Below are positions 5,720 to 63,568 of a DNA stretch of 64,000 bases, in pieces (the stretch's first letter is position 1; each line of letters starts with the position of its first letter). This DNA is from Lingula anatina. Taxonomy: Eukaryota; Animalia; Brachiopoda. The stretch is taken from positions 21,328,001 through 21,392,000 of the forward strand of contig CM120646.1 in assembly GCA_051362555.1 (NCBI GenBank), written 5' to 3'. The notes beneath the pieces were generated by a model. That model was not told where the DNA came from. It saw only the letters and a program-made list of their open reading frames with translations, and searched no databases. The position numbers were made by a program, and so were the translations under genes.

Positions 5720-5929
5720 CATTCCCAGAGATTTAGATCGATCCATCCGGATAGACCTAACTCCCTGGGGGTGCACGCTAAATTGCAGTCAGCCGAGCGC
5801 GCACGACAATTAATTACCCCCTTACGGCTTCTAGTTGGCGGGTCAGACGCTTAAACCGGCTATGCTGACAATAATCTAGTGAGACTCCCCATAGGGATAG
5901 ATCGATCTAAAATCTGTGGGAATGGGGTC
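5720..5929. mobile_element. ~210-bp MITE, copy 1 (second copy inverted at 45802-46015)
   Basis: TIRs CATTCCCAGAGATTTAGATCGATC ... GATCGATCTAAAATCTGTGGGAATG; the internal sequence recurs in reverse orientation at ~45.8-46.0 kb. Confidence 0.8.
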
Positions 5930-8013: not shown

Positions 8014-8463
8014 AAATAGGGCAAGTGAGATAAAGGCATTATTTGGTCAACACTTTGAGGGACAGTTGAAATGTGACATGGTGTTCCTATACAAAGTTAT
8101 ACTGAAGTTATTTTGAGGGCAAACTTGTGCAAATTTTTTGCGCACTGCGCAGCGTGCGGTAGCAGGTAAAATTATTGCATTTCTGTGCGGGCACTGTGAT
8201 TTGTGTGACGGGGATGAGATAGCCTTCGTCGTTTGAAAGGAGAATGCCTCGGATAATTTCAGTATAATCCATTTAAAATTAATTTTCTCGTATTATGGGA
8301 CAATTTCTATGCTTTCTCCACCTGCTCATGAAGACAGCAAGGCGAATAACCAAACTTCAGTGCGAGGAAAACGACAAAAGTTCTACTCGTTCATAAACAT
8401 TATAAAAACTTCAAAAACAAGTGCGATATAAAGCAGAAAGTGTTACCTACCGACACCTACAAT

Positions 8464-9073
8464 ATGATGGAAAAACCCAAATCGTTTAGTATAGACGCTT
8501 TGCTAGCGAAGTCCGACAAGGGGCACTCAGGACTGGCCGGACGCAGTCCTAAGGAAGTGGAAGTGGACGTTACAACCTACGACATGGACAGTCCAGACCA
8601 CTTGACTGGTCACGGGAGGACAAGCCCAAGATCCAACGCCTCCAGCTCCCGGGGGTCGTCACCGCAGAACCCGAGGGAGACAATGTCACGAGGGGGTGGA
8701 GTGGGCATGGACTCAGACTCGGACAAGGAGAGCTGCTCACCTCAGTCCGGGTTCATTCCTCGTCCAGGACTTCTCCCTCTAAACCCCAACTTAGGAATCC
8801 CCCAGCAGGGCTCCCCGGGCTTTCTACCGGCCGGGTTCTACCTGGGCCACCATATGTTCCCCTTTAACGGCCAATCTCCCCCGGGACCCCAGGGTATGCC
8901 CAGCGGCCACCCCCCTTCGTCATCGGGAGGCGTTTCACTCAACGGCAGTGCGTTCCATACCCCGGTGGAACAGCTGTACAAGATGGCGCAGGCGTCTCAG
9001 AATCTCCAGTTGGAATGGTGGGCGAGGGCGGCCCAGAACGGGCTCTTCATGCCTCGGGTCACAGATTATAACG
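8464..9073 (+). CDS. Mnx: Mnx/HB9 motor neuron and pancreas homeobox, coding exon 1
   Basis: ATG at 8464 gives MMEKPKSFSIDALLAK (eh1 motif as in Mnx N-termini); later LEWWAR..GLFMPRVTDY pre-homeodomain motif; donor G|GTGAGT at 9073/9074, phase 1. Confidence 0.93.
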
Positions 9074-14848: not shown

Positions 14849-15127
<279 letters not shown>

Positions 15128-15905
15128 TAGAAATGGAATGACGGGATTTCAGAATTATTAACACGCTGCGACATGCAGTTTTTATACTCTGTATATAAAC
15201 AGTAGTGTAGATCACCGACTATGTAACCACCCGTGCTGTGATTAGTTCACTACTCTACCTGCAGGTGCACAGTAAACATTTTCCCGTAAGACATGTGGCA
15301 GTTGCACAAAAAAAAAAAAAAAAAAAAAAAAATGTGAAAAAGATAGGTATATGATCTCAGTACAATAGCATATAGGCTCAGTGTGAAATGAGAAACATGA
15401 AAAAAATGAAACAAATAAGCACCCATGAAAAAGTTTATTCTCCCATATAAAAAAGCGTGAAGGAATCCCCGTTGGCAAACAAGCGATGTACTGTGAGAAA
15501 CAGTCAACAAAGGTTCGACAAGGGATTCCAAGCTATGCCGCCCTCATCAAAGTTTATCCCGGATCTGTGCAATGATTGTCGCCTCATTTCAAGGTAAACT
15601 AGCGTATCACACCGGCAGATCCCCTGAGCTCTGTCAACACTGTTCTCCCCCTAGCTTCACAGATAACACAGGTGCGCGCAATTACCGCTGATCCCGGCTT
15701 TGTATGAGTGACACAGTGGGACGTGATTCCATGATCTTCTCTCAGTTACCCTGTTGTTATTATTGGAGGGTATATTTAGTAGGGGTAGATAAACGATTGG
15801 CACAACTTTTTTAAAACAACAAAAGTTAGACATACTGAGCGCGAGTAATGGCTGCTCCTCAAGTCTCGAAGTTATGCGTCCCATTCGAGAACTTGGTAAA
15901 CATCT

Positions 15906-15936
<31 letters not shown>

Positions 15937-16414
15937 TTTCCATAGATGTACATTTTATATTGACCATAACCCAGCAAGTATAGCATGCGTGTTTAACAAG
16001 AGCATTCAGTGATAAGAGAGTATTCTAAAGTTATTTAAGCCCAGAGCCTGGATTTGAATTACCCTCTACCAGGTTGTTCTAGCAGTTTTTTACCTTTGGT
16101 CTAAAACATGCTCATCAAAGATGTCAAATAGTCCTTTCACAGACAAGAGGAAAGAAAAAAAACAGAAATACAAACTTTTCCATAAGTTTTCTGTGTGCAG
16201 AATGCTTTCCGTTTATCTTTCACCTATTTGCGAGATTTATTTTGTTGCGCATCACTATGTCTTTTCCGGCTTTTTTTTTCAAGAAAAATTCGCATGTACT
16301 TTTATAGAATATTTTAGAACGAAATAAGATCAAGTTTTACAACCAACACAACTTTTCAACAGAAGCGTGTCTCTTTCAGCAAGCAATGACTAAAATATAT
16401 AATTTTTTTTTCAG

Positions 16415-16678
16415 GTTAAAATTTGGTTCCAAAATCGGCGAATGAAATGGAAACGCTCCAAGAAAGCAGTCGTGGAAACAAAAACCAAGCAGCAAGAATT
16501 GAACAAAACCGACAAAGGAGACAGAGAAGTCACAAAACTAGCGGACCACGTTGGCTCCAAATCAAATAGCTCGAATAACAAGACGATTAGAATTCCACAC
16601 GAGGAAGTTAGCGGGGGGAGTGGTAAGAAAACCGGAACACCTTCAGACTCCAGGAATGGAGACAAACACTGCAGGTGA
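16415..16678 (+). CDS. Mnx: Mnx coding exon 3 (helix 3 and C-terminus)
   Basis: Acceptor TTTTTTCAG|; VKIWFQNRRMKWKRSKK... to TGA at 16676-16678. Joined CDS is 610+161+264=1035 nt, 344 aa, with compatible phases. Confidence 0.97.
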   Translation, partial: VKIWFQNRRMKWKRSKKAVVETKTKQQELNKTDKGDREVTKLADHVGSKSNSSNNKTIRIPHEEVSGGSGKKTGTPSDSRNGDKHCR

Positions 16679-26117: not shown

Positions 26118-27249
26118 CTATACGAGTCCAATATCATCCGCACATTTTTGTAAACTACGCCTTAAAAGTTGAGCTACACCTAATTTAGAACGCAAGACCG
26201 CGCTTAAGTCCATTCTACGGAATCCCTCTAAGTAGTCTTTGTTTTGCAGTACGATCAGATGGGTCTCGTTCATTTCCTTAGCGAGATCTCGTTGGTCGCT
26301 CATGAGATCTGCGGTACTAAACTGAAACCACGCCTCGGAGCCTTCAATGTTATGGAACCGTAACCCAAGGCCCAGTTGTTCCTCAAAAACAGGCTGGGCA
26401 GTTTCGGTACCCAGTTCCGTGCCTTTAAAGGGATCGGCCCCAGACGCCAGAGCTTTGTGTGCCGTGTTAAATCGAGTTTGGTGAATTTTCATAATCCAGT
26501 TTTTGGTAAACTCCGTCTGCATGCGAAATGGGCCCATATTCCCGACATGGAATTCTCCTGATGGGCGTCTAGAACCCACGATGTCATTACTGCCCAGCAA
26601 GTCTAGGTATTCCCTCATGCTCTTAAAACTGATGGTATCCACATCAAAATACATCCCGCCATAGTTAGAAAGAATCGCCGCCCGGAAGTAATCTGATTTG
26701 TGGGCGGGGTTAAGGGAATGGTACATGGGTTGCAGGTAGTCCACGCTCTGTGCAAACTGGGTCGAGTTGAAGACTTTGATGTGGAAATCTTTCTCATTGT
26801 GGCAAATTATGCTAAGAATACACAAGTCGATATAGGCAGGACGCAGAGGACCCTCCCAAAATAACCAAATGAACGGCTTGCCGACAAGTTCGTACACCAT
26901 TGTAATGGGATTCTGAACAAAACGTACTTTCATAACCGGGTCACTGTTCACTTTATAGATGTCTAAGAGCTGCCGCACTTTTCTCTCAAATCCGTCATAG
27001 TCAAATGTGTCAACTGGTGCTTCCGTCACAGTGACGTCAGCTTGCGCGGTACCGGAAGTGATGATGAGAAGTCCGCACACCATGACGACGGCCACGAGAC
27101 CTAGGAGGGCTATAATGCGCCGCTGTCCACGTGACATGAAGGTGATGGAACGAACTAACATTTTGCCCTTTAATCGGAGCTTTTCTTTGTAATCCATCAT
27201 GCGCTGGTGTCTGCTTATTGTAGTTTGCATTGACCCTCCAGAAGTGGTG
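26118..27249 (-). CDS. DXD glycosyltransferase (GT32 / Caps_synth-like), type II membrane protein, main exon
   Basis: TM segment IIALLGLVAVVMVCGLLII; IWLFWEG; HKSDYFRAAILSNYGGMYFDVDTI (SDxxR...YGG.Y.DxD signature); minus-strand acceptor TTGTGTTTTAG|C at 27250/27249. Confidence 0.88.
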
Positions 27250-28561
27250 CTAAAACACAAGTAGAAATAATATATATATGTATATAGGAAAAATTGGTGT
27301 TATTCAAAATTCATTCAATTTTAAATTTGAGGCTTGTCGATTTCATAGTGCTTATTGCGTGTTGCTCCATGACACATGTACTGAGCGTAAAGGGTGCGTA
27401 GAGTTAACAGCTTTGTAGAGTTTTTCTATATATAAAAATGAACTTTAAAATCAAAGTGAAATTAAAAAATAATTGTAGCCTCGCGGTCTTTTAAAAGTTG
27501 GTAAACTCATTTAATGTACAACATTAATAACAGAGAAAACGGTAGAAATATATTCTTGAGGAAAAAATTCTTAGGGGAGATTTTGTAATCAGTTTATTAT
27601 GATAAATTTTTATAAGTAATAAAGTGATATATAAATATAAATCTTATATGCTAAACTGGCAAACAAGGTTAATTGATCACGTGATACATAATAGGTCGCT
27701 TTTACGCAACGATAATTTCAAACTTTTAAAACTGGTCGTCTGTGATTGTGGCATTACGTCAACATGTAAAAATCTGCTTATTACTTTCCACAGTTGAATA
27801 AAAGCCGAGAACATACAGAAGACATTTTCAACAAGTTTAAGCCACGAAGAATTCCATGAGCGGGAATGGGCGCAAGCACTTGTGTTCTACATTTCGTGTG
27901 GGCTGGTAGATCTCCAGAATATTTGCATTATTTTGCAATGTATCAAATGTAATAATTTTTCAAATTAAAGACAGAAATGCATTTTATGAGGCAGATTGAG
28001 AGAGGCCCGTAATCCGTTGTTGAAAGACTCCCAATAACGGCCCTCGTGTCGTCTGCGAAACTTTCGCTAACAGATGCTGTAATTAAACTGATCAAACACC
28101 CGTAATGACTAAGCCAACTGCGAGTTTTGTTCTTTGTCACGCGTATTATGATAAATCAACTGCGCTCTCTATAAACCTCTCCAAATGTGATGTGCAGAAT
28201 TCCAAAATCACCGAGGTTTATTCCGATAATGTCATTAAAATACCATTTTTTCGACGGACAGACTTTAAGGAAGATAAATATGTTCATTCTATCTGAATAT
28301 AACCTTTTATCTAAATTTAGCAGAAATTAAGGAAATGCTCCAGGATTGGATAATTACAACAATGGAATAATACTGAATACCTGATTAGAGACAAAAAATT
28401 AACATTCTTCAAGAAAATCATACAAGGGAATATTGAAAAGAAAAACTTTCGCAACTACGCTAAAATGCGACATAAAATCGAAACTTCAACATTCAGTATT
28501 TAAGCCTAAACGCATGTACACCTCTACAGATTTTAAGAATATTTTTAATATGTATACTGAC

Positions 28562-37861: not shown

Positions 37862-39457
37862 GTAAGTGTCGAAGCTCTCATCTGCTGGGTGTTTTTGGGG
37901 TGGAATCACGTGTTTAGATGACAAATTTATTCATCCATCGGATTCATTTCATCTCGCTACTTTGTTCCTTCATCTTATAGATTTTCTAGGTTACCAAGCA
38001 GGTGCGTTTTACACCTCTTCTCGAGCCTAAATCGACCTAGACCCCTCAAAATCCTTCCCTCAGAGGCTGTAGGAAGGTTAGAAGAGCCTCTGTGTTGAAT
38101 TTTGATGCACTGCATGCCCATTTTACCGGCAAATTTCGAGAATTACTTTACGTGTTTTCCATCTTGTAGCAATCGTGTACTTAAAATTATTGACTATTTA
38201 TCCCTCCCGGCCGCCATTTTTATCTACCGCTTCTCGTAGCTTTTCCTTTGTTCGTTTTTACTGGACTTTCTCACTATTTCCACCTCTTAAAACTTACTAC
38301 CAAGGTTTATACAGGGTCGGGGCCCCCACAGCTCAAAGTTAGTGTAGAATCACGGCGGCAAATTCAAGATTTTTAAAAATCCGGAGGTTTTATTTCTCAT
38401 CCCTAATTTATTCATCTCGTCGAAGAAAGGTTGCCTTTTATAATGCATGACCTAGAAGGGAGAAGCTACATATGGATCGGCGGCGGCTGGAAGATTAACA
38501 GTTGCAGGGTGAATTTGAAGACATTTTGGTTCAAAATATCTGTATTTTTTACTCGTGGAGGGTTTGTTTTGAAGAGTGTACCGGTGTGCTGGCAGGGCAA
38601 TCTGTGGATTAAACTTGGGATGTCAGTCATGGTTTTACATCAAAATGAAACATTTATCAAACTGTGTTTACATTAATTTGTGAGAGCAGTGTATTTCTTG
38701 TGGAGATATTATTGACAGAAGAGTCATAGACTGTACTCGGCTGGCCTTGTAACTTTCAGGCAGCGGAGTTATGTTACCATGCCTAGCTCAGTTGTTGGGT
38801 CAAGATTTTAAAAATTTTGCTCTGTGTTAAAGTCAGCATCTGTTACAGATTGCCCTGACTTGTAGACCTGAATGTGACAACTTTGTTGCTTGCCTTAGAT
38901 GTTTTTCCTTTTTCCCCCATTTGATTTTAAATTTTATTAAAAACCCTTATTCCCAAGAATTTTTTGTCACAGCTGCAAGTGCCGACAATTATGAATTAGT
39001 TATACATACACCTTGCAGTCAGCTGTGTTGTTAAGCTAACCTAAAGCTTGTGTCTGGTGAAATAATGTTAATTTCCTTTCATATTTTCATAATATTGGAT
39101 AAAGAATATGTACTATAGCTGATACATATAGCATTTATTGTTTCTAGGCCCATATACCAGCATTCGGTGCTTAAAAAATCTAAAACCCGATAACTTATGT
39201 GGATGAACTGGTGAACATTAAAATCATTTTTCTGTCCAGTGCCTTGCACAAAATTTTATAAATAAGAGACTGTTGTCTTATTGTAACTGAAAAAGATTAC
39301 TTCTGGTTGACCTGTCTGAGCTAAGGGGCTTTGGTTGGTGGACTGTTAGAGTTTTCAACCAAATTTGCCGTTTTAACTCACTGGAAAATGTTCAACTAAT
39401 GGAAGAGTACATCTAATTCAAACAATAATAGAGGACACAAGAAAACTCTCATATCAT

Positions 39458-45801: not shown

Positions 45802-46015
45802 GGGCGTATTCCCAGACATTTAGATTGATCTATCCCCGTGGGGAGTCTCACTAGATTACTGTCAGATAGTCCGGCTTAAATGTCCGTCCTGCCTACTACA
45901 AGCTGTAAGGGGGTAATTAACTTTCGTGCCCGCTCGGCTGACAGCTATTTAGCGTGAACCCCCAGGGAGTTAGGTCGATCTAGTTTGGATCGATCTAATC
46001 TCTGGGAATGGGGTC
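45802..46015. mobile_element. MITE copy 2 (inverted relative to 5720-5929), TAA-like flanks, possibly PIF/Harbinger-type
   Basis: TAA-GGGCGTATTCCCAGACATTTAGATTGATC ... GATCGATCTAATCTCTGGGAATGGGGTC-TAA; internal homology to copy 1. Confidence 0.8.
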
Positions 46016-48675: not shown

Positions 48676-48834
48676 GCCCATTCAGCACAGCTACCACATC
48701 ATCTTCCTTTGTCCCTCTCTCCAGCATCCCCAGTGCTTTCTCCATGTTTGGTCGCCACCCTGTGTTCCCACCGCCCTTTGGAGGACTAGGTGTATTGAGC
48801 CCAGGGATTGGTCCAGGAATTGGACCAATGACAG
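48676..48834 (+). CDS. BAZ2B: BAZ2B/toutatis-like gene, second coding exon
   Basis: TTTCAG| ... G|GTAAGT, phase 1-1; encodes LSSIPSAFSMFGRHPVFPPPFGGLGVL, resembling the recalled human BAZ2B N-terminus LSTVSSAFPMVSHPVF...FGGLGTL. Confidence 0.8.
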
Positions 48835-50220
48835 GTAAGTTTAGAAACTTCTGTGTTATATACCCTCTCCTCCCCCTCCCCACCACCACCAGATTAAAAA
48901 TTATTTAAAGATTCTGCATTAATAATAACCTGTCTAACTGTTTTGAAGTGCTGACTGGTTTTTATGCTTAAAGCTTATATGTATTGAAAAAGAAAAGAAG
49001 AAAAAAAAAATTCAAGCACATGCGCGAGGATGCATATCTTGTAGATGACAATTTATTTAAATATTCCATTTTTGGCAAGAGCACTAGATGAATAACAGTA
49101 AGCCTTCTGGTTGTTCTAGCAGTAGCAGAATATGACAAAGTCCTTCAACCAGTTTTGTAACAGCTAGAAAGCCTCTGATAGAAATTAAATCAATATATAA
49201 CATGTTAAGGATCATAGTAGTGTTACAATCTATCATACTTGATTAATTAACCCTTTTGATGTTATGTCAAATGCCGATATTTCATTTATTTTAAAACAAA
49301 TGAACTTTCTGTGTTACTAACTTGACAGCAGGCATACTTTATCACAAATCAGACAATAGAGCTACTAAATGTTTTCAGTAATTACTGAAAACATTTATTT
49401 AAGTATCATTAAGTTTAGTGAAACTAAAACCTATATGCCAGTATAACAGTTTGTTGGTAAGATTTCTGAACTGGTTGTCACAGGATTCATAATCTTGATG
49501 ACAGAAATTCATATTTTTGGTCATTTTGTGTATAAATACATTTTATGTCCTTTTTGATCTAACAATTTGATCTTATGCCTAATTTCATGTCACAGACTCA
49601 TTGTGCTGTTTTTTTTCTTTTTTTCATTCTTTCTTTCTTTTTTGCCTGCTTCTGCTGATTGCACATATTCAATTATTGTATCAATCGCTACCTGCATTAA
49701 AATTCCTAAACTGGGTGTTTTTTAAAGTTGTTTTTAAAAAATCCCAGTACGTGTCTGTTTTGTTAAATGAAAATAAAGTTTGGAATTTCATATGAAGTGG
49801 TCTTTAAAAGGTCAAATAGCATCACCTGGAAAACAATAACCTAAGATTAAAAGAAGAAACACGTGTATATAAAGTTTAATCCTCATTGTATGACTTTTAA
49901 GATCTACAGGAAAAATATTCACAGGAAGTGGCTGCTGTATGTCTTGTAAATTATTCTGATAAAAAATTAAGCTTTTTTTTTTTTTTTTTTTTAAAGTTAT
50001 CATCAGTTTTATCAGTGGACATTAACATAAATTTTATTTTTTCAATATACTTAGTGCAGCTGCAGTGGATATAACTGTTTAGGGCTTGTGCAATATGCAT
50101 GGCTGACATTTCAGATGCTAAACTTATATTTTATGCTTACATGCAATATTTATGATATGCCACATACGCAAATACGTAGGCATTTTATTTACATTTATGA
50201 TATGCCACATAGGAAAACAC

Positions 50221-50444
50221 ATGGATTGCATTCAGATCACACATTGTAGTAGCTGGGTCTGTTCAACTCTGCAGGGGATTGTCAATAAAGTGAAATCAGT
50301 GGCATTAGCTGACATACATCCTAGGGGGAAATTAACTTTTGTGTGCTGATTAAGATTCAACTGATTGCACTTCAGGGACAATCCCCCTCCCCCCAGAGTT
50401 AGACTGATTTAGCTAGTACGATGTGTGAATCTGAATGTGTCCAT
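50221..50444. mobile_element. MITE-like long inverted repeat, with a further partial copy at ~50490-50570
   Basis: CATTCAGATCACACATTGTAGTAGCT..AACTCTG..GGGGATTGTC pairs with GACAATCCCC..CAGAGTT..AGCTAGTACGATGTGTGAATCTGAATG. Confidence 0.6.
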
Positions 50445-50811
50445 AAACACTTTCACCGTTAATTGAGGAAGCATAGAATTAGGGAGAATTCAGATTCAGA
50501 CATTGTACCAGCTAGATCAATCCGCCTCTGCAGGGATTCTCACCAACGCGCAGTCAGTGTAATCAGCTTTAATACTGGGTTCCCATACCTAGATCAATCT
50601 AACAAGTTTATTTCCTATTGGGACTTCAAAAGTTAATTTCCCCCTTTTCTTAAGAATACTGTGCAATTAACCACCATGCACATAGGCAATGCACAAGACT
50701 TTGGCGATAACATGATAATTCTGATCCATCCCTAATGACTGATGACTGCCCCTTTCCAGTGAATATTATATTTAACCAAATAGTATTTTACTAGGGGTAA
50801 ATGGACAACAG

Positions 50812-52341
50812 TTATGTCATACAGATTTTTCTGTAAAGCAAGTGGGCAATAAGTTTTCCTGTGCCACCGACAAATGAAACATCCCCATCGTTTGTCTTTT
50901 TTGCACACATGAAGTGATAACCTTCACAGGTTGTATCATTCATGGGATGTACAATGTGGAACGCATCAAAAACTTCCACCCCTAGTTTCTTCATTTTCGG
51001 TCCCAAAATTTCATTGGTTGCTGATTTCATAAAATAATTGCTATCTTTTCTCCATTCTCCGGCTGTCTGTATGTTAAAGTAGATCAGATGAACCTTTGCC
51101 TGTTTGGGATTTCGCTTAATACGGCTTATGACATTGAAGATAATTTTGCTATGATTTAGAATGAGGTGCCTTGCATTTCTACGAGCCAGGTCCCATTGAC
51201 CAAAACCTAAAACTATAACATCAGATGCAGACCATGTAGATCGTGACATCAGGTGCTTTTGGAGATTTGCAGCTGCAACATGTGGATAATTCCCCCACAT
51301 TGCTGCAATGTTTTCATTGTAGAAAAAAAGTCCATCTTGAATACCAGTCAAAGCGTATGGATATTTCATACTGAGTAAATGCATTAAGTAAAGACTAAGG
51401 TATCTCATGTGAGAGTCCCCTATGAAAGAGATGCTGGATTTATTTTTTTGACAACTAAGCAGTTCAGTTTGGGTCAAAAAAGGCAGCAAAAGGCCTGTTT
51501 GGGACCCCCATTGCCACGTACCATTTACTTTCCACCAGCGTCCATGCAGGTACTCTGTTATATTCCCACTATATGGGTAAGCTTCAATGTTCAGTCTCTC
51601 CTTGGAATTTGGGCATACATTGTTATATATACTTATTTTTTGCTTTAATCTTCCTGGCCATAAGATGCTAAAATTTTCATGATGCCTGTACCCCTCAAAG
51701 TTAACAAACTCCAAGAAGACAGTGATGTTGACACATGTATGTATTCTTGGACAGTGAGCAGTGTAGGTGCCATTAAAGTAGTCTTGGACAGGACACCACA
51801 TCCTCTCTCCACCCATTATTGTGATTCTGAATCCACTTCCCCCAGTGGACAGTGTACTTTGGCCATTGTGAACAAATTCAGTGATGTTCAAGATGACATA
51901 ATCTGGATTGGGTAGTTTTCGGATTAACTGTACTTGATGATGGTACTGCTTGGCATCAGACTTGTACTTGGAATAATCCAAAGGAGAAGTTGTTATATCT
52001 GGTTCTTTTGTGAAGTTTGTTATGGTCCAGTAATGGTAAAGTTGCAACATTTCTGTTGGACCAAAACGTGTGGGCTCTTTAATGAATCTGTCCTCTGGCT
52101 TTTTAAAATCAATAGGTAGTAAAGTGTTCTTTTGTTCTGCCAGGAACATCATACAAAATAGAACAGCAACAATCAGAAGAACTTTGCAGTAAAAAACATA
52201 TTGAAGTAACCTATGAGTACCTTGTTCTGCAATACACATCTTTACATTCATCTTCATTTTACCATCAAGTCTTGATAAAAGAAAACAACATTTGAAGCCA
52301 CCCAGAAAATTCATTTGACCACAGTCTTCATGAATATTCAT
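50812..52341 (-). CDS. NXPE/PC-esterase-like (SGNH-type) type II membrane protein, copy A, intronless ORF (alternative start 52257)
   Basis: 509-aa ORF; TM VLLIVAVLFCMMFL; GGSGFR...VQDYFNGTYTA NXPE Ig-like motif; FIGDSH; GQWD; FDAF...CEGYH. Confidence 0.85.
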   Translation of the reverse strand: MNIHEDCGQMNFLGGFKCCFLLSRLDGKMKMNVKMCIAEQGTHRLLQYVFYCKVLLIVAVLFCMMFLAEQKNTLLPIDFKKPEDRFIKEPTRFGPTEMLQLYHYWTITNFTKEPDITTSPLDYSKYKSDAKQYHHQVQLIRKLPNPDYVILNITEFVHNGQSTLSTGGSGFRITIMGGERMWCPVQDYFNGTYTAHCPRIHTCVNITVFLEFVNFEGYRHHENFSILWPGRLKQKISIYNNVCPNSKERLNIEAYPYSGNITEYLHGRWWKVNGTWQWGSQTGLLLPFLTQTELLSCQKNKSSISFIGDSHMRYLSLYLMHLLSMKYPYALTGIQDGLFFYNENIAAMWGNYPHVAAANLQKHLMSRSTWSASDVIVLGFGQWDLARRNARHLILNHSKIIFNVISRIKRNPKQAKVHLIYFNIQTAGEWRKDSNYFMKSATNEILGPKMKKLGVEVFDAFHIVHPMNDTTCEGYHFMCAKKTNDGDVSFVGGTGKLIAHLLYRKICMT

Positions 52342-53021
52342 ATTTCCCTCTGTGTTACCAGCATCATATTATTTATTCATTATTTATGGACATATGGATA
52401 AGACTTGATCATTCCAATGTGGGGAACATTATGAATTTTACAGATACTGAATTTTTATTGTAATAAATTCTTAAAACATTCGAATTGAGTGTTAATAACA
52501 AAACTGGAAAGCTGGCTACCATTAAGTTTTATTCTTGAGAATAAAATCACCATATATAGAGATATAATTTTTATGACTCCAAAATAATGTTGCTGAGGGA
52601 TTGGTACCTTTTCCCAACTGAAAATATTGAGTTATTACGTTATTAATATAGGAGAACAGGACCTGGCTTACCCCATTTTCTCATCTACCTGTATTTGGTC
52701 CTTTGTAATTTGAAAAACCAATGAATGATTTCATTATTAGAGTTCACTCGAGTTGGTGAAAGGTGCGGAAATGGTAATTTAAGTTCAGTCAGCCATGTTC
52801 CTTTGCTGATGAGACTACTTAATACTTTTATTTTAATTTTGCCCTGAAAATGTGTGAATTAACTGTAATAATTAATATGCAATAAGTCATTTCAGGCACT
52901 GATTGACATAAACTCTCTTCTGGCACTTGTCTGTTTAACTTGCCCGTGAACAATTTTTGGGATGTAGTAATGGGATATTGCTATTGTATATAATAAACAG
53001 CTGGTTTATGATAAACTTGAC

Positions 53022-53272
53022 TTAAGTCATGCAGATTTTTCTGTAAAGTAACTGGGCAATGACTTTACCTGTATCACCAACAAATGTTACAGTGCCATGC
53101 CTTTTCTTTTTTTTCGGACACAAGTAGTGAACAAGATCACAAATTGTATCAGTCATAGGATATACAATGTGGAATGCATCAAAAACTTCCACACCAAGTT
53201 TCTTCATTTCTGTTCCCAGTATTTCATTGGTTGCTGATTTCATGAAATAATTACTTTTCTCCTCGCTCCACC
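53022..53272 (-). pseudogene. NXPE-like 3'-end cassette B (C-terminal ~80 codons only)
   Basis: MKSATNEILG...DLVHYLCPKKKKRHG...RKICMT*; upstream it is fused directly to 3'-flank sequence and has a small deletion. Confidence 0.8.
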
Positions 53273-53418
53273 AGTCATTTCAGGCACTGATCAACAAAAA
53301 TTCTTTTCAGGCACTTGTCTGTTTAACTTTTCTTCAAACAATATTTGGGATGTATTAATGAGATACAGCCAGTTCGGATAATAAACAGCTGATATAAATT
53401 GTTTTTTTTTTGTAGGAC

Positions 53419-53670
53419 TTAAGTCATACAAATTTTTCTGTAAAGTAACTGGGCAACGGCTTTACCGGTATTACCGACAAATGTTACAGGAGCAGACATT
53501 TGCTTTTTTGGACACAAGTAGTGAACAAGATCACAAATTGTATCAGTCATAGGATATACTATGTGGAATGCATCAAAAACTTCCACACCAAGTTTCTTCA
53601 TTTCTGTTCCCAGTATTTCATTGGTTGCTGATTCCATGAAATAATTGCTATCTTTTCTCCATGCTCCACC
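53419..53670 (-). pseudogene. NXPE-like 3'-end cassette C (C-terminal ~83 codons only)
   Basis: GGAWRKDSNYF...DLVHYLCPKKQMSAP...RKICMT*; same junction (CCACC|AGTCATTTCAGG on +) as cassette B, ~398-bp period. Confidence 0.8.
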
Positions 53671-53817
53671 AGTCATTTCAGGCACTGATCAACAGAAATT
53701 CTTTTCAGACACTTGTCTGTTTAACTTGCCTTCAAACAATACTTGGGATGTATTAATGGGATACTGCCAGTTCGGATAATAAAAAGCTGATATAAATTGT
53801 TTTTTTTTTTGTAGGAC

Positions 53818-55337
53818 TTAAGTCATACAAATTTTTCTGTAAAGTAACTGGGCAACGGCTTTACCGGTATCACCGACAAATGTTACAGGACCAGACATTT
53901 CCTTTTTTGGACACAAGTAGTGAACAAGATCACATATTGTATCAGTCATAGGATATACTATGTGGAATGCATCAAAAACTTCCACACCCAGTTTCTTCAT
54001 TTCTGTTCCCAGTATTTCATTGGCTGCTGATTTCATGAAATAATTGCTATCTTTTCTCCATTCTCCACCTGCCTGTATGTTAAAGTAGATCAAGCGAAGT
54101 TTTGCCTGCTTGGGATTTCCCTTTATACCTCTGATGGCGTCAAAGATAATTTTGCTGTGTTTTAGAATGAGGTGTCTTGCATTTCTACGAGTCACATCCA
54201 TTGACCGAAACCTAGAACTATGACATCGGATGGAGACCATGTAGATCGTGACTTCAAATGCTTCTGGAGATTTGCAGCAGCAACATGTGGATAATTTCCC
54301 CACATTGATGCAATACTTTTATTGTAGAAAAATAGTGTATCTGTAGTGCCATCGGGGAGGTGTGGATTTTTCATGTTGAGTAAATATATTAAATAAAAAC
54401 TTATCACTCTTATGTGGGAGTCCCCAATGAAAGACATGCTAGATTTATTTTTTTGACAATGTAGCAGTTCAGTTGTAGTCAAAAAAGGCAGCAAAAGACC
54501 TGTTTTGGACCCCCATCGCCATGTACCATTAACTTTCCACCAGCGTCCCTGGAGGTACTCTGTTATATTCCCACTAAATGTGTCAGCTTTAATGTTCAGT
54601 CTTTCCTTGGATCTTGGACATACATTGTTATATATATTTAGTGTTTTTTCTAGTCTTCCTGGCCATGCAATTTTATATTTATGGTGCCTGTAGCCCTCAA
54701 AGTTGACAAACTCCAAGAAGACAGTGATGTTGACACATGTATGTATCCTTGGACAGTGAGCAGTGTAGGTGCCGTTGAAGTAGTCTTGGACAGGACACCA
54801 TATCCTCTCTCCACCCATTATTGTGATTCTGAATCCACTTCCCCCAGTGGACAGTGTACTTTGGCCTTTCTGAACAAATTCATTGATCTTCAAGATGACA
54901 GAATCTGGATTGGGTAGTTTTCGGATTAACTGCACTTGATGATGGTACTGTTTGGCATCAGACTTGTACTTGGAATAATCCAAAGGAGAAGTTGTTATAT
55001 CTGGTTCTTTTGTGAAGTTTGCTATGGTCCAGTAATGGTAAAGATGCAACATTTCTGTTGGACCAAAACGTGTGGGCTCTTCTATGAATCTGTCCTGTGG
55101 CTTATTTACATCAGTAGGTAGAGAGGCGTTCTTTTGTTCTGCCAGGAACATCATCAAAAATACAACAGCAACAATCAGGAGAACTTTGCAGTGAAAAACA
55201 TATTGAAGTAACCTATGAGTACCCTGTTCTGCAATCCGCATCTGTACATTCATCTTCATTTTACCATCAAGTCTTGATAAAAGAAAACAGCATTTGAAGC
55301 CACCCATTAAATTAATTTGATCACAGTCTTTTTTCAT
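53818..55337 (-). pseudogene. NXPE-like copy D, full length with a 1-nt frameshift at ~54198
   Basis: Two overlapping ORFs (54192-55337 and 53818-54303) rebuild one gene; + strand ATCCATTG versus GTCCCATTG in the paralogs. GDSH and DLVH are intact. Could be an assembly error. Confidence 0.75.
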
Positions 55338-56053
55338 GAATATTCATATTTCCTCCTGTGTTGCCAGCATCATATTATTTATTATTAATGGATATATATA
55401 TATGGATAATACTTGATCTTTCCAATGGGAAAAATTATGGATTTTACATATACTGAATTTTTATTGTAATAAATTCTTAAAACATTCTGATTGAGTGTTA
55501 ATAACAAAACTGAAAATGAGGCTACCCTTTAGTTTTATTCTCGAGAAGAAAATCACCATATATAGAGATATAATTTTTATGACTCCAAATAAAGTTGCTG
55601 AGGGATTGCTACTTTTTCTCAACTGAAAATATTGAGTCATTGCAGTATAAGTATAGGAATAGGAAACCTGACTTACCCAGTTTTCTAATCTTACTACCTG
55701 TCTTTGGTTCTTAATAATTTGAAAAACCAATGGATGATTTCATAACCAGAATTCACTCGGATTGGTAAAAGTTGCGGAAAATGAACACTTAAGTTCAGTC
55801 AGCTACTTTCTTTGTTTTAAAGACGTTTAGCGAATACTTATTGTTCTCATTGTGTCCTGAAAATATGTCAATAAAGTGAAAGTATTATGCTAAATAAGTC
55901 TTTTCAGGCACTGATTGACACATTCTTTTCAGGCACTTGCATGTAAAATTTGCCTGCAAACAATATTTGGGATGTAATAATAGGATATTGCCATTGTAAA
56001 TAATAAACAGCTGGTATATGATATGTGTGTATAAATTGTTTTTTTGGTAGGAC

Positions 56054-57610
56054 TTAAGTCATACAGATTTTTCTGTAAAGTAGCTGGGCAATGACTTTAC
56101 CTGTATCACCGACAAATGTTACAGGGCCATGCCTTTTCTTTCTTTTTGGACACAAGTAGTGAACATTATCGCATATTGTATCAGTCATAGGATATACAAT
56201 GTGGAATGCATCAAAAACCTCCACACCAAGTTTCTTCATTTCTGTTCCCAGTATTTCATTGGTTGCCGATTTCATGAAATAATTACTATCTTTTCTCCAT
56301 GCTCCACCTGCCTGTATGTTAAGGTAGATCAAGCGAAGTTTTGCATGCTTGGGATTTCCCCTTATACCTCTGATGGCATCAAAGATAATTTTGCTGTGTT
56401 TTAGAATGAGGTGTCTTGCATTTCTACGAGTCACGTCCCATTGACCGAAACCTAGAACTATGACATCGGATGAAGACCATGTAGATCGTGACTTCAGGTG
56501 CTTCTGGAGATTTGCAGCAGCAACATGTGGAAAATTCCCCCACATTGCTGCAATGTTTTCATTGTAGAAAAATAGTGTATCTGTAGTGCCATCGAAGAGA
56601 TGTGGATTTTTCATCTTGAGTAAATACATTAAATAATAACTTATTGCTCTTATGTGGGAGTCCCCAATGAAAGAGATGCTAGTTTTCTTTTTTTGACAGC
56701 TTACCAGTTCAGTTGGAGTCAAAAAAGGCAACAAAAGACCTGTTTTGGACCCCCATCGCCAGGTACCATTAACTTTCCACCAGCGTCCATGCAGGTACTC
56801 TGTTATATTCCCACTAAATGTGTCAGCCTTAATGTTCAGTCTCTTCTTGGATCTTGGACAGACATTGCTATATATATTTAGGATTTTTTCTAGTCTACCT
56901 GGCCATGCAATTTTATAGTTGTTATGGTGCCTGTAGCCCTCAAACTTGACAAACTCCAAGAAGACAGTGATGTTGACACATGTATGTATCCTTGGACAGT
57001 GAGCAGTGTAGGTGCCATTAAAGTAGTCTTGGACAGGACACCACATCCTCTCTCCACCCATTATTGTGATTCTGAATCCACTTCCCCCAGTGGACAGTGT
57101 ACTTTGGCCTTTCTGAACAAATTCAGTGATGTTCAAGATGACAGAATCTGGATTGGGTAGTTTTCGGATTAACTGTACTTCATGATGGTACTGCTTGGCA
57201 TCCGAGTTGTACATTGAATAATTCAAAGGAGAAGTTGTTATATCTGGTTCTTTTGTGAAGTTTGCTATGGTCCAGTAATGGTAAAGTTGCAACATTTCTG
57301 TTGGACCAAAACGTGTGGGCTCTTCAATGAATCTGTCTTCCATTTTTTTAAAATTAATAGGCAGCCGAATGGGCTTTTCAGTGAATCTGTCCTCTAGTTT
57401 TTTTGAATTAATAGGCAGTCGTATGGGCTCTTCAGTGAAACTGTCCTCTGGTTTCTTAAAATTAATAGGTAGAAAGACATTCTTTTGTTCTGCCTGGAAC
57501 ATCATCCGAAATACAACAGAAACAATCAGGAGAACTTTGAAGTAAAAAATATATTGAAGTAACCTATGACTACAATGCTCTGCAACACGCATCTGTATAT
57601 TCCTCTTCAT
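56054..57610 (-). CDS. NXPE/PC-esterase-like copy E (518 aa from the first ATG)
   Basis: ATG at 57610 (MKRN); TM; three 18-aa stem repeats; FIGDSH and CDNVH intact. Confidence 0.87.
   Translation of the reverse strand: MKRNIQMRVAEHCSHRLLQYIFYFKVLLIVSVVFRMMFQAEQKNVFLPINFKKPEDSFTEEPIRLPINSKKLEDRFTEKPIRLPINFKKMEDRFIEEPTRFGPTEMLQLYHYWTIANFTKEPDITTSPLNYSMYNSDAKQYHHEVQLIRKLPNPDSVILNITEFVQKGQSTLSTGGSGFRITIMGGERMWCPVQDYFNGTYTAHCPRIHTCVNITVFLEFVKFEGYRHHNNYKIAWPGRLEKILNIYSNVCPRSKKRLNIKADTFSGNITEYLHGRWWKVNGTWRWGSKTGLLLPFLTPTELVSCQKKKTSISFIGDSHIRAISYYLMYLLKMKNPHLFDGTTDTLFFYNENIAAMWGNFPHVAAANLQKHLKSRSTWSSSDVIVLGFGQWDVTRRNARHLILKHSKIIFDAIRGIRGNPKHAKLRLIYLNIQAGGAWRKDSNYFMKSATNEILGTEMKKLGVEVFDAFHIVYPMTDTICDNVHYLCPKRKKRHGPVTFVGDTGKVIAQLLYRKICMT
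57311..57472 (-). repeat. Coding tandem repeat, 3 x 54 nt, in copy E
   Basis: LPINFKKPEDSFTEEPIR / LPINSKKLEDRFTEKPIR / LPINFKKMEDRFIEEPTR. Confidence 0.9.
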
Positions 57611-58149
57611 CTTACCATCAAGCCTTGCACTAATAAAGCCACTCAAAAATTCAAGATGGTTTTTTGCACAATACTCTTCTCATACTGTGTCACCAGTATC
57701 ATATTATTTATTCAAGCTTCTGCTTCAAGGTTAGGATATTAGTCTTTTAGATCTTGATATTGATATTTAATGCACTTAAATATATATATAGGTTTGTTAA
57801 TTAAGCAATGATACTTTGATCTTGATGACTTCTTTGTTCTACAAAACTTGAGAAAATCAAAGCTTTGGACATACAATGTCAACAAACATTTTTGGGATAA
57901 AATGAGGTTTAGATAGCATTTAGAAGTCAGTCTTTTACTGTACAAAAAACGAGAGTGTCCAATTGTATAAGGCAGTCCTTTTAGAAGGGAAAAAAGAAAT
58001 GTTTGACTAAGTCGATATTTCTTTATACATACAACCGATATATTGATCGAGTAACTTGTAGAATTGCCAAATTTTGGAAAATGTTTGAATGTGTGCAATG
58101 GCTTCTTGCCTCTTTTGCACTGCTCCGCAGTGCTCAGTCTTGCATATCT

Positions 58150-59372
58150 CAGGGATTGTCCTTGGTCAAAATCAGGTTGGGCCATTTTGGCCCACTTGGT
58201 AAAATAAAAGTGGGATATTTTTTAAAAAATGTGTGCCGTGAATTATTTAGAGAAAATTCATTATATTTCAGTATTTTTATATGATTAAAAACAATGAAAA
58301 AGGCTTGATGCTGCTTCTCTAAAGTCCTAAATAGTTGTAGTGTGGAAAAATCTTCCAAAATTAACTGTCTGAAAAATTGTACTGAATGAAAAAAATCTTT
58401 CAGAATTAATAATTGTACTAAGTGCAATAAATGCACTGCATGGAAAAGGTTCACAATTCCTATTTTTATTGTAAAAAAAGCCATTGCTCTTCAAAGAATT
58501 TTTACTCAAAATATTTGCATTGTTTTTTTAACCTGAAAATAATTAAGCAGTGATCTAAGCTGAGAGAAACTGGTCTTGAATATATCTATATTTACATAAA
58601 ATCTAGCAAGCAACTATATAACTTTACAAAAATAAGTTAGCACACCTATTAATGAATTTACACATGAGGGATTTGTGATTATTACACTGATGCAGGGCTT
58701 ATTTTTCAGGGCACCTGTCTGGTCAGGCCTACTGCTAACAAGTTTTACCTGTCCCCAGATGATTTCCATTTGCACAGCCTTCCCCCCCCCCCCCCCCCCC
58801 CCCCCCCAAAAAAAAAGTGCATTTTTTTTCAATATCCAAGCTAGTTCGTTTAGATGAATATAATGGACAGTTTTGCATCCTGACTGTGCCATTGCGGATT
58901 TTCTGCATTGAAAACGATGCTTCCCTCATTTTGACATGCAGCGCCACTAAAGGTGCAATATTACAAAAAATATCCGTTAAAATTTAGTCAAGAGCGCCCA
59001 ATAGAAAAGCAAATGAATATTTATCCTTTTCACTTATTGATTAGTCATCATGTAGTTTGACAGAAGCCATATTTGTTTACCCAGCACATGTTGTTAGGTG
59101 TTCTCAGAGGTCTGTGCACTGCCGGCATAACCAATTCGAGCGGTCTGTTTTTCATTGACCCGTAGTTGTTTCAGTTTCGATATATTTTTGTGAAACAGGT
59201 CACATGTCAGCCCTCACAGCACTTCGAGTGACATCAGATGTACGTAATCTTTATTATGAAATAAGTGTCTTCTATTTGTATGCACCAGTATGGCGCAGGT
59301 TAAAATTTTACTTGCGCCTTTGAGAAAGGGTCCGCGCATTTGGCGCAATTGCGCGGCCCAGGATTATCCCTG
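58150..59372. mobile_element. 1.2-kb non-autonomous hAT-like element with 6-bp TSD ATATCT
   Basis: ATATCT|CAGGGATTGTCCTTGG ... CCCAGGATTATCCCTG|ATATCT; the paralogous empty site TGC-ATATCT-GTCCTTTG is at 63045-63061. Confidence 0.88.
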
Positions 59373-59543
59373 ATATCTGTCCTTTGTTTACAGTATGAAA
59401 CTCCAAACTTAATATTTTTGAAAAGTAATGCGTGTTGGTGTTTCACTAGATAACCAACATCCAGTGTATGTGAGTTATTAGTTCTAGAGTCACACTTGAT
59501 ACCAAGCTATTTATTGATATTTTATTAGTCTCACTGCAGCTTA

Positions 59544-59905
59544 GCCATTGTTCACATGAAAAATCCAAAATCCAAAAATCCATTGGCAGTATCTAGTGAT
59601 GACAGTCCGTGCCCTGAATATCCAGTGGCGTAATTTACTCGCAGCATGAGCGAGTCATTTCCAAAGCTGTTATTAATTCTCAGCTGCGCTTAGAGAAGAT
59701 TCTGACACCTGGACGCATGTGCAGTAATAAATTAGAGAGAAAGGAAATGGCGGCTGCGGTTGCTTTGAAAAATGTGTTTGTCGAATTTGTGCAACAGCAA
59801 GAGGAAGAAGATGAGGTCCATATACACACGACAGATATGAGTGCAACCATCATGATTCTGACACCTGGACGCATGCACAGTAATAAATTAGAGAGAAAGA
59901 AAATG
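59544..59905 (+). mobile_element. Truncated Harbinger-like element end with an internal ~55-bp duplication
   Basis: TTA|GCCATTGTTCACATG...CTGAATATCC..GGCGTAATT resembles 41623-41730; GATTCTGACACCTGGACGCATG..CAGTAATAAATTAGAGAGAAAG occurs twice (~59698, ~59854). Confidence 0.5.
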
Positions 59906-60100
59906 GTGGCACTGCTTGGCATCAGACTTGTACTTGGAAAGAAGTTGTTATATCTGGTTCTTTTGTGGAGTTGGTTATGGTCCAGTAATGGTAGAGTTGC
60001 AACATTTCTGTTGGACCAAAACTTATGGGCTCTTCAATGAATCTGTCCTCTGGTTTTTTAAAATTAATATGTTGTAAGGCTTTCTCAGGTTCTGTCGGGA
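59905..60100 (-). pseudogene. NXPE-like remnant G (stem/N-terminal fragment with deletions)
   Basis: ACTGCTTGGCATCAGACTTGTACTTGGAA...CATTTCTGTTGGACCAAAAC...GGGCTCTTCAATGAATCTGTCCTCTGG matches the paralogs; start, TM and catalytic part are missing. Confidence 0.8.
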
Positions 60101-60710
60101 ATGTGGAAAAAATTGTGAATTTTATAGATACTGAATTTTTATTGTAATAAATTCTTAAAACATTCTGATTGAGTGTTTATAACAAAACTGAAAAGCAGGC
60201 TACTGTATAGTTTTATTCTCAATTAAATGTTTTATAGAGATATAATTTTTATGACCCCAAATAATGTTGCTGACAGACTGGTACTTTCTCCCAACTGAAC
60301 ATATGGAATCGTTGCACTATCAGAATAGAAGAGAACCTGACTTACCCAGGTTTCTCATCTACCTTTATTTGGATTCTTAATAATTTGTAAATCCATTGGA
60401 TGATTTCATTATCAAAGTTCACTCGAGTTGGTGAAAGGTGGGGAAAAATTGACATATATTAAGTTCAGTCAGCCATTTTTCTTTGCTGATAAGACTATAA
60501 GTAAATACTTTTTATTCTTTCTGTGCCCTGAAGATGTGTGAAATAACTGAAAGTGTTATGCTAAATAAGTCATTTCGGGCACTGATCAACAGAAATTCTT
60601 TTCAGGCACTTGTCTGTTTAACTTGCCTTCAAACAATATTTGGGATGTATTAATGGAATACTGCCAGTTCGGATAATAAACAGCTGATATAAATTATTTT
60701 TTGGTAGGAG

Positions 60711-62480
60711 TTAAGTCATACAAATTTTTCTGTAAAGTAACTGGGCAACGGCTTTACCGGTATCACCGACAAATGTTACAGGACCAGACATTTTCTTTTT
60801 TGGACACAAGTAGTTAACAGGATCACATGTTGTATCAGTCATAGGATATACAATGTGGAATGCATCAAAAACTTCCACACCAAGTTTCTTCATTTCTGTT
60901 CCCAGTATTTCATTGGTTGCTGATTTCATGAAATAATTGCTATCTTTTCTCCAACTTCCACCTGCCTGTATGTTAAGATAGATCAAGCGAAGTTTAGCCT
61001 GCTTGGGATTACTTCTTATGGCTCTAATGACATCAAAGATAATTCTGCTTTGATTTAAAATTAGCTGTCTTGCATTTCTTTCAGTCAGGTCCCATTGACC
61101 GAAACCTAGAACTATGACATCAGATGTGGACCATGTAGATCTTGACTTCAAGTGCTTTTGGAGATTTGCAGCAGCAACAAGTGGATTATTCCCCCACATT
61201 GCTGCAATGTTTTCATTGTAGAAAAATAGTGTATCTGTAGTGCCATAGAAGAGATGGGGATTTTTCATCTTGAGTAAATACATTAAATAATAACTTATCG
61301 CTCTTATGTGGGTGTCCCCAATGAAAGAAATGCTGGATTTATTTTTTTGACAACGTAGCAGTTGAGTTGGAGTCAAAAAAGGCAGTAAAAGGCCTGTTTG
61401 GGACCCCCATTGCCAGGTACCATTAACTTTCCACCAGCGTCCCTGGAGGTACTCTGTTATATCCCCACTATATGTGTCAGCTTTAATGTTCAGTCTCTCC
61501 TTGGATCTTGGGCATACATTGTTATACATACTTATTTTTTTCTTTAATCTTCCTGGCCATGGTATATTATATTTGTCATGGTGCCTATACCCCTCAAAGT
61601 TGACAAACTCCAAGAAGACAGTGATGTTGACACATGTATGTATTCTTGGGCAATGAGCAGCGTAGGTGCCATTGAAGTAGTCTTGGACAGGACACCACAT
61701 CCTCTCTCCACCCATTATTGTGATTCTGAATCCACTTCCCCCAGTGGACAGTGTTTCTTGGCCATTGTGAACAAATTCAGTGATGTTCAAGATGACAGAA
61801 TCTGGATTGGGTAGTTTTTGGATTAACTGCACTTGATGATGGTACTGCTTGGCATCAGACTTGTACTTGGAATAATCCAAAGGAGAAGTTGTTATATCTG
61901 GTTCTTTTGTGGAGTTTGTTATGGTCCAGTAATGGTAAAGTTGCAACATTTCTGTTGGACCAAAATGTATGTGCTCTTCAATTAATCTGTCCTCTGGTTC
62001 TTTAGAACTCATAGGCAGTTGTGTGGGCTCTTCAATTAATCTGTCCTCTGGTTCTTTAGAATTCATAGGCAGTTGTGTGGGCTGTTCAGTGAATCTGTCC
62101 TCTGGTTCTTTAGAATTCATAGGCAGTTGTGTGGGCTCTTCAGTGACTTTGTCCTCTGGTTCTTTAGAATTCATAGGCAGTTGTGTGGGGTCTTCAGTGA
62201 AACTGTCCTCTGGTTCTTTAAAATTAATAGGCAGTTGTGTGGGCTCTTCAGTGAAACTGTCCTCTGGCTTTTTAAAATCAATAGGTGGTTGTGTGGGCTC
62301 TTCAGTGAAACTGTCCTCTGGCTTTTTAAAATCAATAGGTGGTAAGGCTTTCTTTTGTTCTGTCAGGAACATCATCCATAATACAACTGCAACAATCATT
62401 AAAAGTTTGCAGTAAAAAATATATTGAAGTAACCTATGAGTACGCTGCTTTGCAATACGCATCTGGATATTTGTCTTCAT
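60711..62480 (-). CDS. NXPE/PC-esterase-like copy F (589 aa), catalytic motifs altered (GDT, DPVN)
   Basis: Intact ORF; TM LLMIVAVVLWMMFL; seven 18-aa stem repeats; FIGDTH and CDPVN. Confidence 0.87.
   Translation of the reverse strand: MKTNIQMRIAKQRTHRLLQYIFYCKLLMIVAVVLWMMFLTEQKKALPPIDFKKPEDSFTEEPTQPPIDFKKPEDSFTEEPTQLPINFKEPEDSFTEDPTQLPMNSKEPEDKVTEEPTQLPMNSKEPEDRFTEQPTQLPMNSKEPEDRLIEEPTQLPMSSKEPEDRLIEEHIHFGPTEMLQLYHYWTITNSTKEPDITTSPLDYSKYKSDAKQYHHQVQLIQKLPNPDSVILNITEFVHNGQETLSTGGSGFRITIMGGERMWCPVQDYFNGTYAAHCPRIHTCVNITVFLEFVNFEGYRHHDKYNIPWPGRLKKKISMYNNVCPRSKERLNIKADTYSGDITEYLQGRWWKVNGTWQWGSQTGLLLPFLTPTQLLRCQKNKSSISFIGDTHIRAISYYLMYLLKMKNPHLFYGTTDTLFFYNENIAAMWGNNPLVAAANLQKHLKSRSTWSTSDVIVLGFGQWDLTERNARQLILNQSRIIFDVIRAIRSNPKQAKLRLIYLNIQAGGSWRKDSNYFMKSATNEILGTEMKKLGVEVFDAFHIVYPMTDTTCDPVNYLCPKKKMSGPVTFVGDTGKAVAQLLYRKICMT
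61965..62342 (-). repeat. Coding tandem repeat, 7 x 54 nt, in copy F
   Basis: (L/P)P(I/M)(D/N/S)(F/S)K(K/E)PEDxxxE(E/D/Q)PTQ units; the last unit ends EHIH. Confidence 0.92.
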
Positions 62481-63424
62481 TTTGCCATCAGATCCTTCAC
62501 TATTGAAACCACTCTAAAATGTATTTGACTATGAATATTGTTTATTGCACAATATTCTTCTCATACTGTGTTACCAGTATCATATTATTTATTCAAGCTT
62601 CTGCTTCAAGGTTAGGATATCTGTCTTTTAGATCTTTATTGATATTTAATGCACTTACATATAGGTTTGTTAATTAGGCTATGATACTTAGATCTTGATG
62701 ACTTCCTTGATTTGACAAAAAATGACAAAAGTAAAGTTTTGGACATACAATGTCAACAATCTTTTTTAGGAAAAGAATGAGGTTGAGATAGGATTTAAAA
62801 GGCAGTTTTTTACTGTACAAAAAAGGAGAGACTTTGAGTTTTAAGCAGCGTCCAATTGTATCTGATTGATAGGCAGTCCTTTTAAAAGGGAAAAAGGAAA
62901 TGTTTGACCAAGTTGATATTTCTTTCTTATATACAACTGATGTATTTTGATCGAATAACTTGTAGAATTGCCAAATTTTGGAAAATGTTTGAATGTGTGC
63001 AATGGCTCCTTGCCTCTTTTGCGCTGCTCCGCAGTGCTCACTCTTGCATATCTGTCCTTTGCTTACAGGATGAAACTCCAAACTTATGTTTTCAAAGTAA
63101 TGCGTGTTGATGTTTCACTCGATAACCAACATCCAGTGTGTGTGAGTTAGTTCTAGAGTCACTCTTAATAACTAGCTATTTACTGATAGTTTACTAGCCT
63201 CACTGCAGTATATTTTTCATTTGTGGTCCATGTGCTCAAAATGATCTTTGGCATGTTTTGGCAAAAACAAGGCAGACTTGGTGCAAAAACTCGATCTAGA
63301 AATCCTTTTGATTTTAAGTCTGTAATCCCAAATTGGATTTTTAAATAATGTGGTGTAAGCTTGATATGCTACAGTGAGACTAGGTTTGACGTGTTGCTTG
63401 CTAACTTTCACTTCTAACCACTAG

Positions 63425-63568
63425 GTGGCGCTGATTGGTGGCGTGCGGCATCTGAGCATGCTCGGAGGCTAGCCACGACCGCAGAACTGGAATATTACAG
63501 CGGGGCTCTCAGCAGCCCTCTGTCGCCCCACTTTGGAACTCTTTCAACCAGCAGTACAGCCGAGTCAA
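63425..63568 (+). CDS. BAZ2B: BAZ2B/toutatis-like gene, third coding exon (gene continues beyond the window)
   Basis: CTAAC branch-like sites and CACTAG| acceptor; phase 1 gives GGADWWRAASEHARRLA...STAES, matching the recalled BAZ2B GAEWWRTTDAHTR block; donor A|GTATGT. Confidence 0.8.

Follow-up and report, generated by a model that had tools for sequence, protein, structure and literature searches.

What are the genes that lie packed on the opposite strand inside a single intron of another gene in the brachiopod Lingula anatina, and how did they come to be there? The locus occupies part of a 64,000-nucleotide (nt) stretch of contig CM120646.1 (assembly GCA_051362555.1, positions 21,328,001 to 21,392,000, forward strand), which we call the window and to which all coordinates below refer. 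An earlier note on this DNA, made from the sequence alone, had described an antisense array of NXPE/PC-esterase-like genes nested in one intron of a BAZ2B-like chromatin gene. On balance we favour the explanation that a founder gene multiplied within this intron, which is confirmed by RNA, that two intact copies, A and C, would encode type II membrane enzymes acetylating surface or secreted glycans, and that a third, E, is without both predicted catalytic residues. The unit letters A, B, C and E are labels of the present analysis and may differ from those of the earlier note.

The intron that contains the entire array is 14,590 nt long (48835-63424, plus strand) with GT and AG at its ends. It lies between two plus-strand coding exons, both phase 1-1, open and with canonical ends: a Pro/Gly/Phe-rich exon of 159 nt (48676-48834), which has RNA depth and a read joint, and an exon of 144 nt (63425-63568) whose translation starts GADWW. 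RNA evidence came from seven of nine species-labelled runs, each sampled to 6-30%, and is shallow. The 48834-63425 joint was read in two of four runs, by nine reads whose shorter arm measures 65-69 nt: three reads from two start positions in X9 and six from four start positions in X8. No joint read was seen in X3 or X5 at this depth. The earlier note had made nesting in one host intron depend on this splice junction, and the in-phase exons together with the splice from 48834 to 63425 in X8 and X9 bear the nesting out.

What is the host gene? Its coding content in the window amounts to only about 100 low-complexity codons, and no upstream host coding exon was identified there. The host is quite likely BAZ2B-like, although no search confirmed the label: the Phe/Pro/Gly-rich stretch followed by GADWW resembles the vertebrate BAZ2B N-terminus with its GAEWW motif. 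The MBD/TAM, DDT, WHIM and PHD domains and the bromodomain expected of a BAZ2 protein would be encoded past 64000. Searches of Pfam, Atlas, PDB, protein databases and literature motifs gave no BAZ2B match for the two exons, and neither a word-indexed protein search, capped at 2000 aa, nor metagenome scans returned any relative of the host exon. The best score in a lookup of the host exons, 0.76 for AUTS2/fibrosin, is a lead only, and the predicted fold of the 48-amino acid (aa) exon, one helix and a tail, is uninformative. The finding depends on the BAZ2B label only for the word "chromatin". The housekeeping character proposed for the host is supported by CpG depletion. The ratio of observed to expected CpG is 0.90 over 1-38400 and 0.30 over 38401-64000, dropping at about 38.4-39 kb and staying low thereafter. 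The array lies wholly within this depleted domain (38400-64000, assigned to the plus strand), and the ratio within the array open reading frames is 0.16-0.32. We infer that the domain is the methylated gene body of a housekeeping-type host that covers the array, and that the host gene would start near 37.5-39 kb. The sharp CpG boundary at about 38400-39000 itself is likely to mark the host promoter and first exon, and close to it, at about 37470 and 38210 respectively, are sequences that we take to be a GC box and a YY1-like motif.

By tblastn and self-comparison, seven homologous segments were found, all on the minus strand and all inside the one intron, and self-duplicated sequence makes up 77% of that intron. 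The earlier note had counted seven paralogous intronless units; seven antisense minus-strand segments do exist, but they comprise three intact open reading frames, one frameshifted copy and three remnants of 200-250 bp each. The four long copies have coding regions without introns. Unit A (50812-52257, start at 52257) is intact and encodes 481 aa, or 509 aa from an upstream in-frame ATG at 52341; its product has a transmembrane segment at residues 21-39, one stem unit, a filamin-like immunoglobulin (Ig) lobe and an SGNH-like domain with GDSH and EGYH motifs. Unit B (53818-55259) is full length, with GDSH and DLVH, and carries a one-base deletion near 54198 and a stop at 54192-54194. No RNA read row lies over 54198, and the frameshift could reflect either a pseudogene or an assembly error. 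Unit C (56054-57610) is intact, with 518 aa, three stem units, GDSH and DNVH. Unit E (60711-62480), also intact, is the longest at 589 aa, with seven stem units of 18 aa, GDTH and DPVN. The length differences between the copies come from this 54-bp (18-aa) stem repeat, of which A and B have about one unit each, C about three and E about seven. Between A and B lie two remnants, f1 (53022-53272; the last ~84 codons, frame broken, with DxxH) and f2 (53419-53670; the last 84 codons, with DLVH, 95% like E); both resemble the 3' end of B, and together they form a tandem repeat of 399 bp. The third remnant (59903-60101), of about 200 bp, holds stem and the start of the N-lobe, has neither start codon nor transmembrane segment, and adjoins repeat DNA.

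To what family do these proteins belong? HMMER found 211 relatives at an E-value of 0.001 or less, the best with 33% identity. Four of the 20 relatives that were looked up are named, two from Lingula anatina (LOC106176723, LOC112041545) and two from Owenia fusiformis (CAH1795730.1, CAH1785324.1); these nearest named relatives share up to 33% identity with the array proteins (E-value 1e-51) and are all uncharacterised, and a marine spiralian source is inferred. A family alignment of 111 rows was assembled from the three intact ectodomains and 108 of the 150 HMMER matches listed, chosen by length. Its profile placed human NXPE1 (9pja) first in the PDB, with an E-value of 3.6e-9 over positions 8-403, followed by filamin repeats and then SGNH acetyltransferases including PatB. 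The predicted structural model (predicted local distance difference test, 90; predicted template modelling score, 0.91) has an SGNH-type alpha/beta fold: Foldseek returned SGNH folds and filamin domains, with Arabidopsis XOAT1 at rank 2 (E-value 7e-5), and VIA placed XOAT1 at rank 1 (Z-score 16.5, root-mean-square deviation 3.4, 220 residues aligned; next row 15.2). Atlas gave an NXPE3-like cluster at 0.94, with 10 of 10 named matches in one family or clan. Elsewhere the yield was small: word-indexed protein searches returned one match in one case and one for the alignment, and metagenome scans no relatives of Unit C. One hydrophobic segment, at residues 20-39, is present in all four long copies and in 55 of 89 full-length relatives, and supports the predicted type II topology; that of C contains an Arg. 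The N-terminal anchor, the neurexophilin/filamin-type Ig lobe and the esterase domain thus occur together, and the NXPE/PC-esterase fold proposed earlier finds agreement from the profile and from the model. On sequence and modelled fold, we read the array proteins as distant NXPE/PC-esterase members and not as NXPE1-4 orthologues.

The catalytic residues set the copies apart. In the alignment the Gly is invariant, the Ser is kept in 105 and the His in 96 of the 111 rows, and the Asp is not conserved, a pattern that fits the Ser-His dyad proposed for NXPE1. A cryo-electron microscopy preprint places no Asp beside His529 of NXPE1 (10.64898/2026.05.20.726592), and the D526A replacement lowered activity without abolishing it according to the results section of PMC12216134, where the discussion says "abrogated". 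Another report describes labelling of NXPE1 at S355 and use of acetyl-CoA (10.1101/2024.12.24.630288), and the Figure 1 legend of PMC2824669 records that known PC-esterases vary at the Asp. The Asn of the canonical GxND block is replaced by Trp (82) or His (21) in 103 of the 111 rows, with GQWD in A, C and E. The nucleophile motif is GDSH in A, B and C and GDTH in E (Ser to Thr, 61311-61313); the C-terminal motif is DxxH in B, C, f1 and f2, ExxH in A, and DxxN in E (His to Asn, 60813-60815). Of the three intact reading frames, the GDS...DxxH pattern named in the earlier note holds for C alone, where Ser, Asp and His are all present; in A a Glu stands in place of the Asp, and E differs at both motifs.

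How did the copies arise? A tree of 41 rows groups the four long copies in a single clade (100/100) whose nearest neighbour is a Lingula protein, which means that the copies go back to a single founder. Identity among A, C and E is 80-87%. Pairwise ratios of nonsynonymous to synonymous substitution rates (dN/dS) between the intact copies are 0.37 (0.25-0.50) for A-C, 0.36 for A-E and 0.36 for C-E, with intervals below 1; selection is therefore purifying and not diversifying, contrary to the diversifying locus of the earlier note, and positive selection was rejected on these pairwise ratios. The ratios for changes private to one copy are 0.42 for A (p 6e-5), 0.27 for C (p 0.001) and 0.49 for E (p 0.04; 13 synonymous and 22 nonsynonymous changes), so that E appears to be under mild constraint, which may predate its loss of residues. 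Over the first 300 nt beyond the stem A and E differ by 2-3%, but past nt 600 by 11-24%; none of 500 shuffles reached this step in similarity in any of the three pairs involving A, and the B-C pair has no such step (118 of 500 shuffles). The mosaic in A may be read as gene conversion, and a difference in rate between domains could contribute. The local birth-and-death that had been suggested for the array is supported.

It is likely that an NXPE-like gene with an intronless coding region landed in a tolerant intron and multiplied in place by unequal crossing-over. On this view the intron would simply be a site where the insertion was tolerated, the array would not be functionally tied to the host, and its genes would be silent or rare in the sampled tissues. 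The founder may have arrived by retroposition; a single long open reading frame is found as well in the neighbouring glycosyltransferase gene (26121-27299). Downstream of A, at a distance of 820 nt, lies a 20-nt T run (49973-49992; an A run on the minus strand) that AATAAA precedes by about 40 nt. This run is a possible retro scar or the tail of an adjacent repeat; repeat DNA lies between it and Unit A, the window has four such runs, and no other retro scar was seen. A repeat element at 50229-50650, with several nested inverted repeats, is transcribed from other copies in all seven runs.

The predicted protein would have an N-terminal anchor, an acidic Pro-rich stem setting the distance from the membrane, the filamin-like Ig lobe and the SGNH-like domain. 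By analogy with NXPE1 and XOAT1, the His would activate the Ser, which would take an acetyl group from acetyl-CoA and hand it to a sugar hydroxyl. The reaction would be of the ping-pong type via an acetyl-serine, with the Asp optional, and its site the Golgi or the cell surface.

Several results weigh against enzymes of this kind being encoded and used here. None of the four window proteins has a significant Pfam match, including to Neurexophilin or NXPE4_C at the curated cut-off, and NXPE4_C matches 10 of 60 relatives at an E-value of 0.01 or less with only two passing that cut-off. A single-sequence phmmer search of the PDB returned nothing, NXPE1 is absent among the Foldseek and VIA rows listed, the seven runs contain hardly any reads for A and B, and no minus-strand transcripts were seen in the stranded-looking runs X1, X3, X4 and X5, shallow as they are. 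Bacterial sialate O-acetylesterases also score Z 14.4-14.7 in VIA, and hence the fold cannot separate transferase from esterase. The same array could in principle encode O-acetylesterases, its active copies stripping acyl groups from the animal's own or from microbial glycans: many of the top fold matches are esterases, and PMC2824669 names the family esterases and proposes that animal expansions deacylate pathogen glycans. We regard this as unlikely, since NXPE1, which matches best over the whole protein, and XOAT1, which matches best in fold, are both proven transferases, and the canonical GxND block is replaced by Trp or His as in these two enzymes.

Expression bears on two further explanations. 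In the P1 and P2 runs (X1, X3, X4, X5), the first mate maps to the minus strand in the host exons and in seven of seven covered coding bins, the array bins holding about one to two read pairs each; these libraries look stranded, and the array reads are best read as host pre-mRNA. Host-strand RNA thus crosses copies whose own strand is unseen, in an array lying wholly in the CpG-depleted domain, and one could suppose that the nesting serves a function, the cluster being controlled by transcription or methylation of the host through antisense interference or mutually exclusive expression. This seems very improbable: any silent nested gene would look alike, and PMC3240667 reports a poor correlation between host and nested genes for TipE, with such relations usually unclear. 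It is only slightly more credible, and still improbable, that the whole array is decaying, having been functional until recently and now being silenced in a methylated host gene body. Four of the seven units are broken or partial, E has neither Ser nor His, the anchor of C contains the Arg and a likely transposon lies 540 nt upstream of C, CpG is depleted in the reading frames, and sense-strand reads are missing from the stranded-looking runs; yet three long reading frames are intact, and their private-change ratios (0.42, 0.27 and 0.49 for A, C and E) speak against decay. So does X8, a P3 run that looks unstranded, in which E is covered over four consecutive bins (60180-62219; summed depth 1.9-4.8) and C is touched as well, whereas depth over A, B and the adjacent unique intron bins is zero or close to it. 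The element upstream of C is a 1.22-kb insertion (58150-59372) with a 6-bp target duplication and with imperfect terminal inverted repeats of 16 bp that start CAGGGAT; it is probably a non-autonomous DNA transposon, and RNA reads from other copies of the element map to it.

The preferred reading, founder expansion with A and C as predicted acetyltransferases, leaves the role of E to be considered. Having lost both catalytic residues, E is a predicted pseudoenzyme. Within a stretch of about 240 nt the E-like reads of X8 depart from E at 10 sites among those listed, where eight of the read bases occur in another copy in the window and two in none; they come from a different allele or from a paralogue elsewhere. 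The site of the His to Asn change is absent among the 40 of 113 variant rows listed, though sites 2 and 5 nt away are listed, which hints that the Asn is shared by the RNA source. Four of the 108 relatives (P0049, P0080, P0112, P0144) are also without Ser and His, subject to alignment error, and are possible independent pseudoenzymes. Tentatively, and with rather little expectation of being right, E might be imagined as a maintained, expressed dead copy on a seven-unit stem, serving as a glycan binder or an inhibitory partner of its active sisters, in an array whose haplotypes gene conversion reshuffles between individuals.

NXPE1 is a homodimer, and sialic acid is scarce in most protostomes. 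Human NXPE1 (FAM55A; a sialic acid O-acetyltransferase, PDB 9pja) shares with the array proteins the type II anchor, the filamin/neurexophilin-type Ig lobe with GG...D-x-x-N-G-T-Y, the GDS motif and the C-terminal His. The array proteins are very distant from it and have a shorter N-lobe, GDSH where NXPE1 has GDST, a C-x-x-x-H-[YF]-x-C pattern at the His, and the variable 18-aa stem repeats. In the human genome NXPE1, 2 and 4 form a tandem cluster too (10.64898/2026.05.20.726592). The Fam55 PC-esterases have GDS, a His before the last helix, Trp or His for Asn, and the filamin-like Ig fusion, as in the array, and massive Fam55/NXPE expansions are described in Branchiostoma floridae and Lottia gigantea, with a non-DxxH variant in Lottia; the available part of that paper gives no account of intron nesting or of copies without Ser and His (PMC2824669). 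Unlike that Fam55 set, the array clade is poorly seen by current Pfam models. XOAT1/ESK1 (TBL family, PDB 6cci), the best structural match of the catalytic domain, is a plant xylan enzyme of 14% identity to the array, matching without the Ig lobe. The arrangement is reminiscent of insect TipE/Teh genes in CG18675 and GMC oxidoreductases in flotillin-2, where paralogues likewise occupy one intron of a conserved single-copy host; those clusters are old and conserved, whereas the Lingula array is young (synonymous divergence 0.1-0.5), turning over and entirely antisense (PMC3240667). Among the literature matches listed on invertebrate NXPE expansion and nested antisense families, none reports this locus. 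Nesting and family expansion are already known, the locus is real and well supported, and the only unusual thing about it is copy E, long-stemmed and lacking the catalytic residues.

The rest of the window holds a three-exon homeobox gene (8350-16675, plus strand; Pfam Homeodomain) in which CpG is not depleted (0.92) and which we take to be Mnx/HB9; no paper on a BAZ2B-Mnx neighbourhood was found among the literature matches listed. A single long open reading frame on the minus strand (26121-27299) encodes a type II DXD glycosyltransferase (Gly_transf_sug, E-value 1e-10; Caps_synth weak). This second glycan-modifying gene lies beyond the CpG-depleted domain (0.92). A 200-bp repeat, abundant in the RNA runs, occurs as two inverted copies (85%) at 5720-5923 and 45808-46010.

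The architecture itself is unsurprising, because nested genes typically make up 5-10% of genes (PMC10282587). A locus of this type, nested and without a Pfam match, is easily missed by automatic annotation. If the reading of E as a maintained dead copy were true, dead NXPE-like copies would recur in the control of surface glycans among invertebrates. Since the chemistry of the family was demonstrated in humans only recently, it is of use that the array offers a natural series: Ser-Asp-His, Ser-Glu-His, and neither Ser nor His, in copies that are 80-87% identical and differ in stem length. Such a series could reveal what invertebrate NXPE-like enzymes acetylate.

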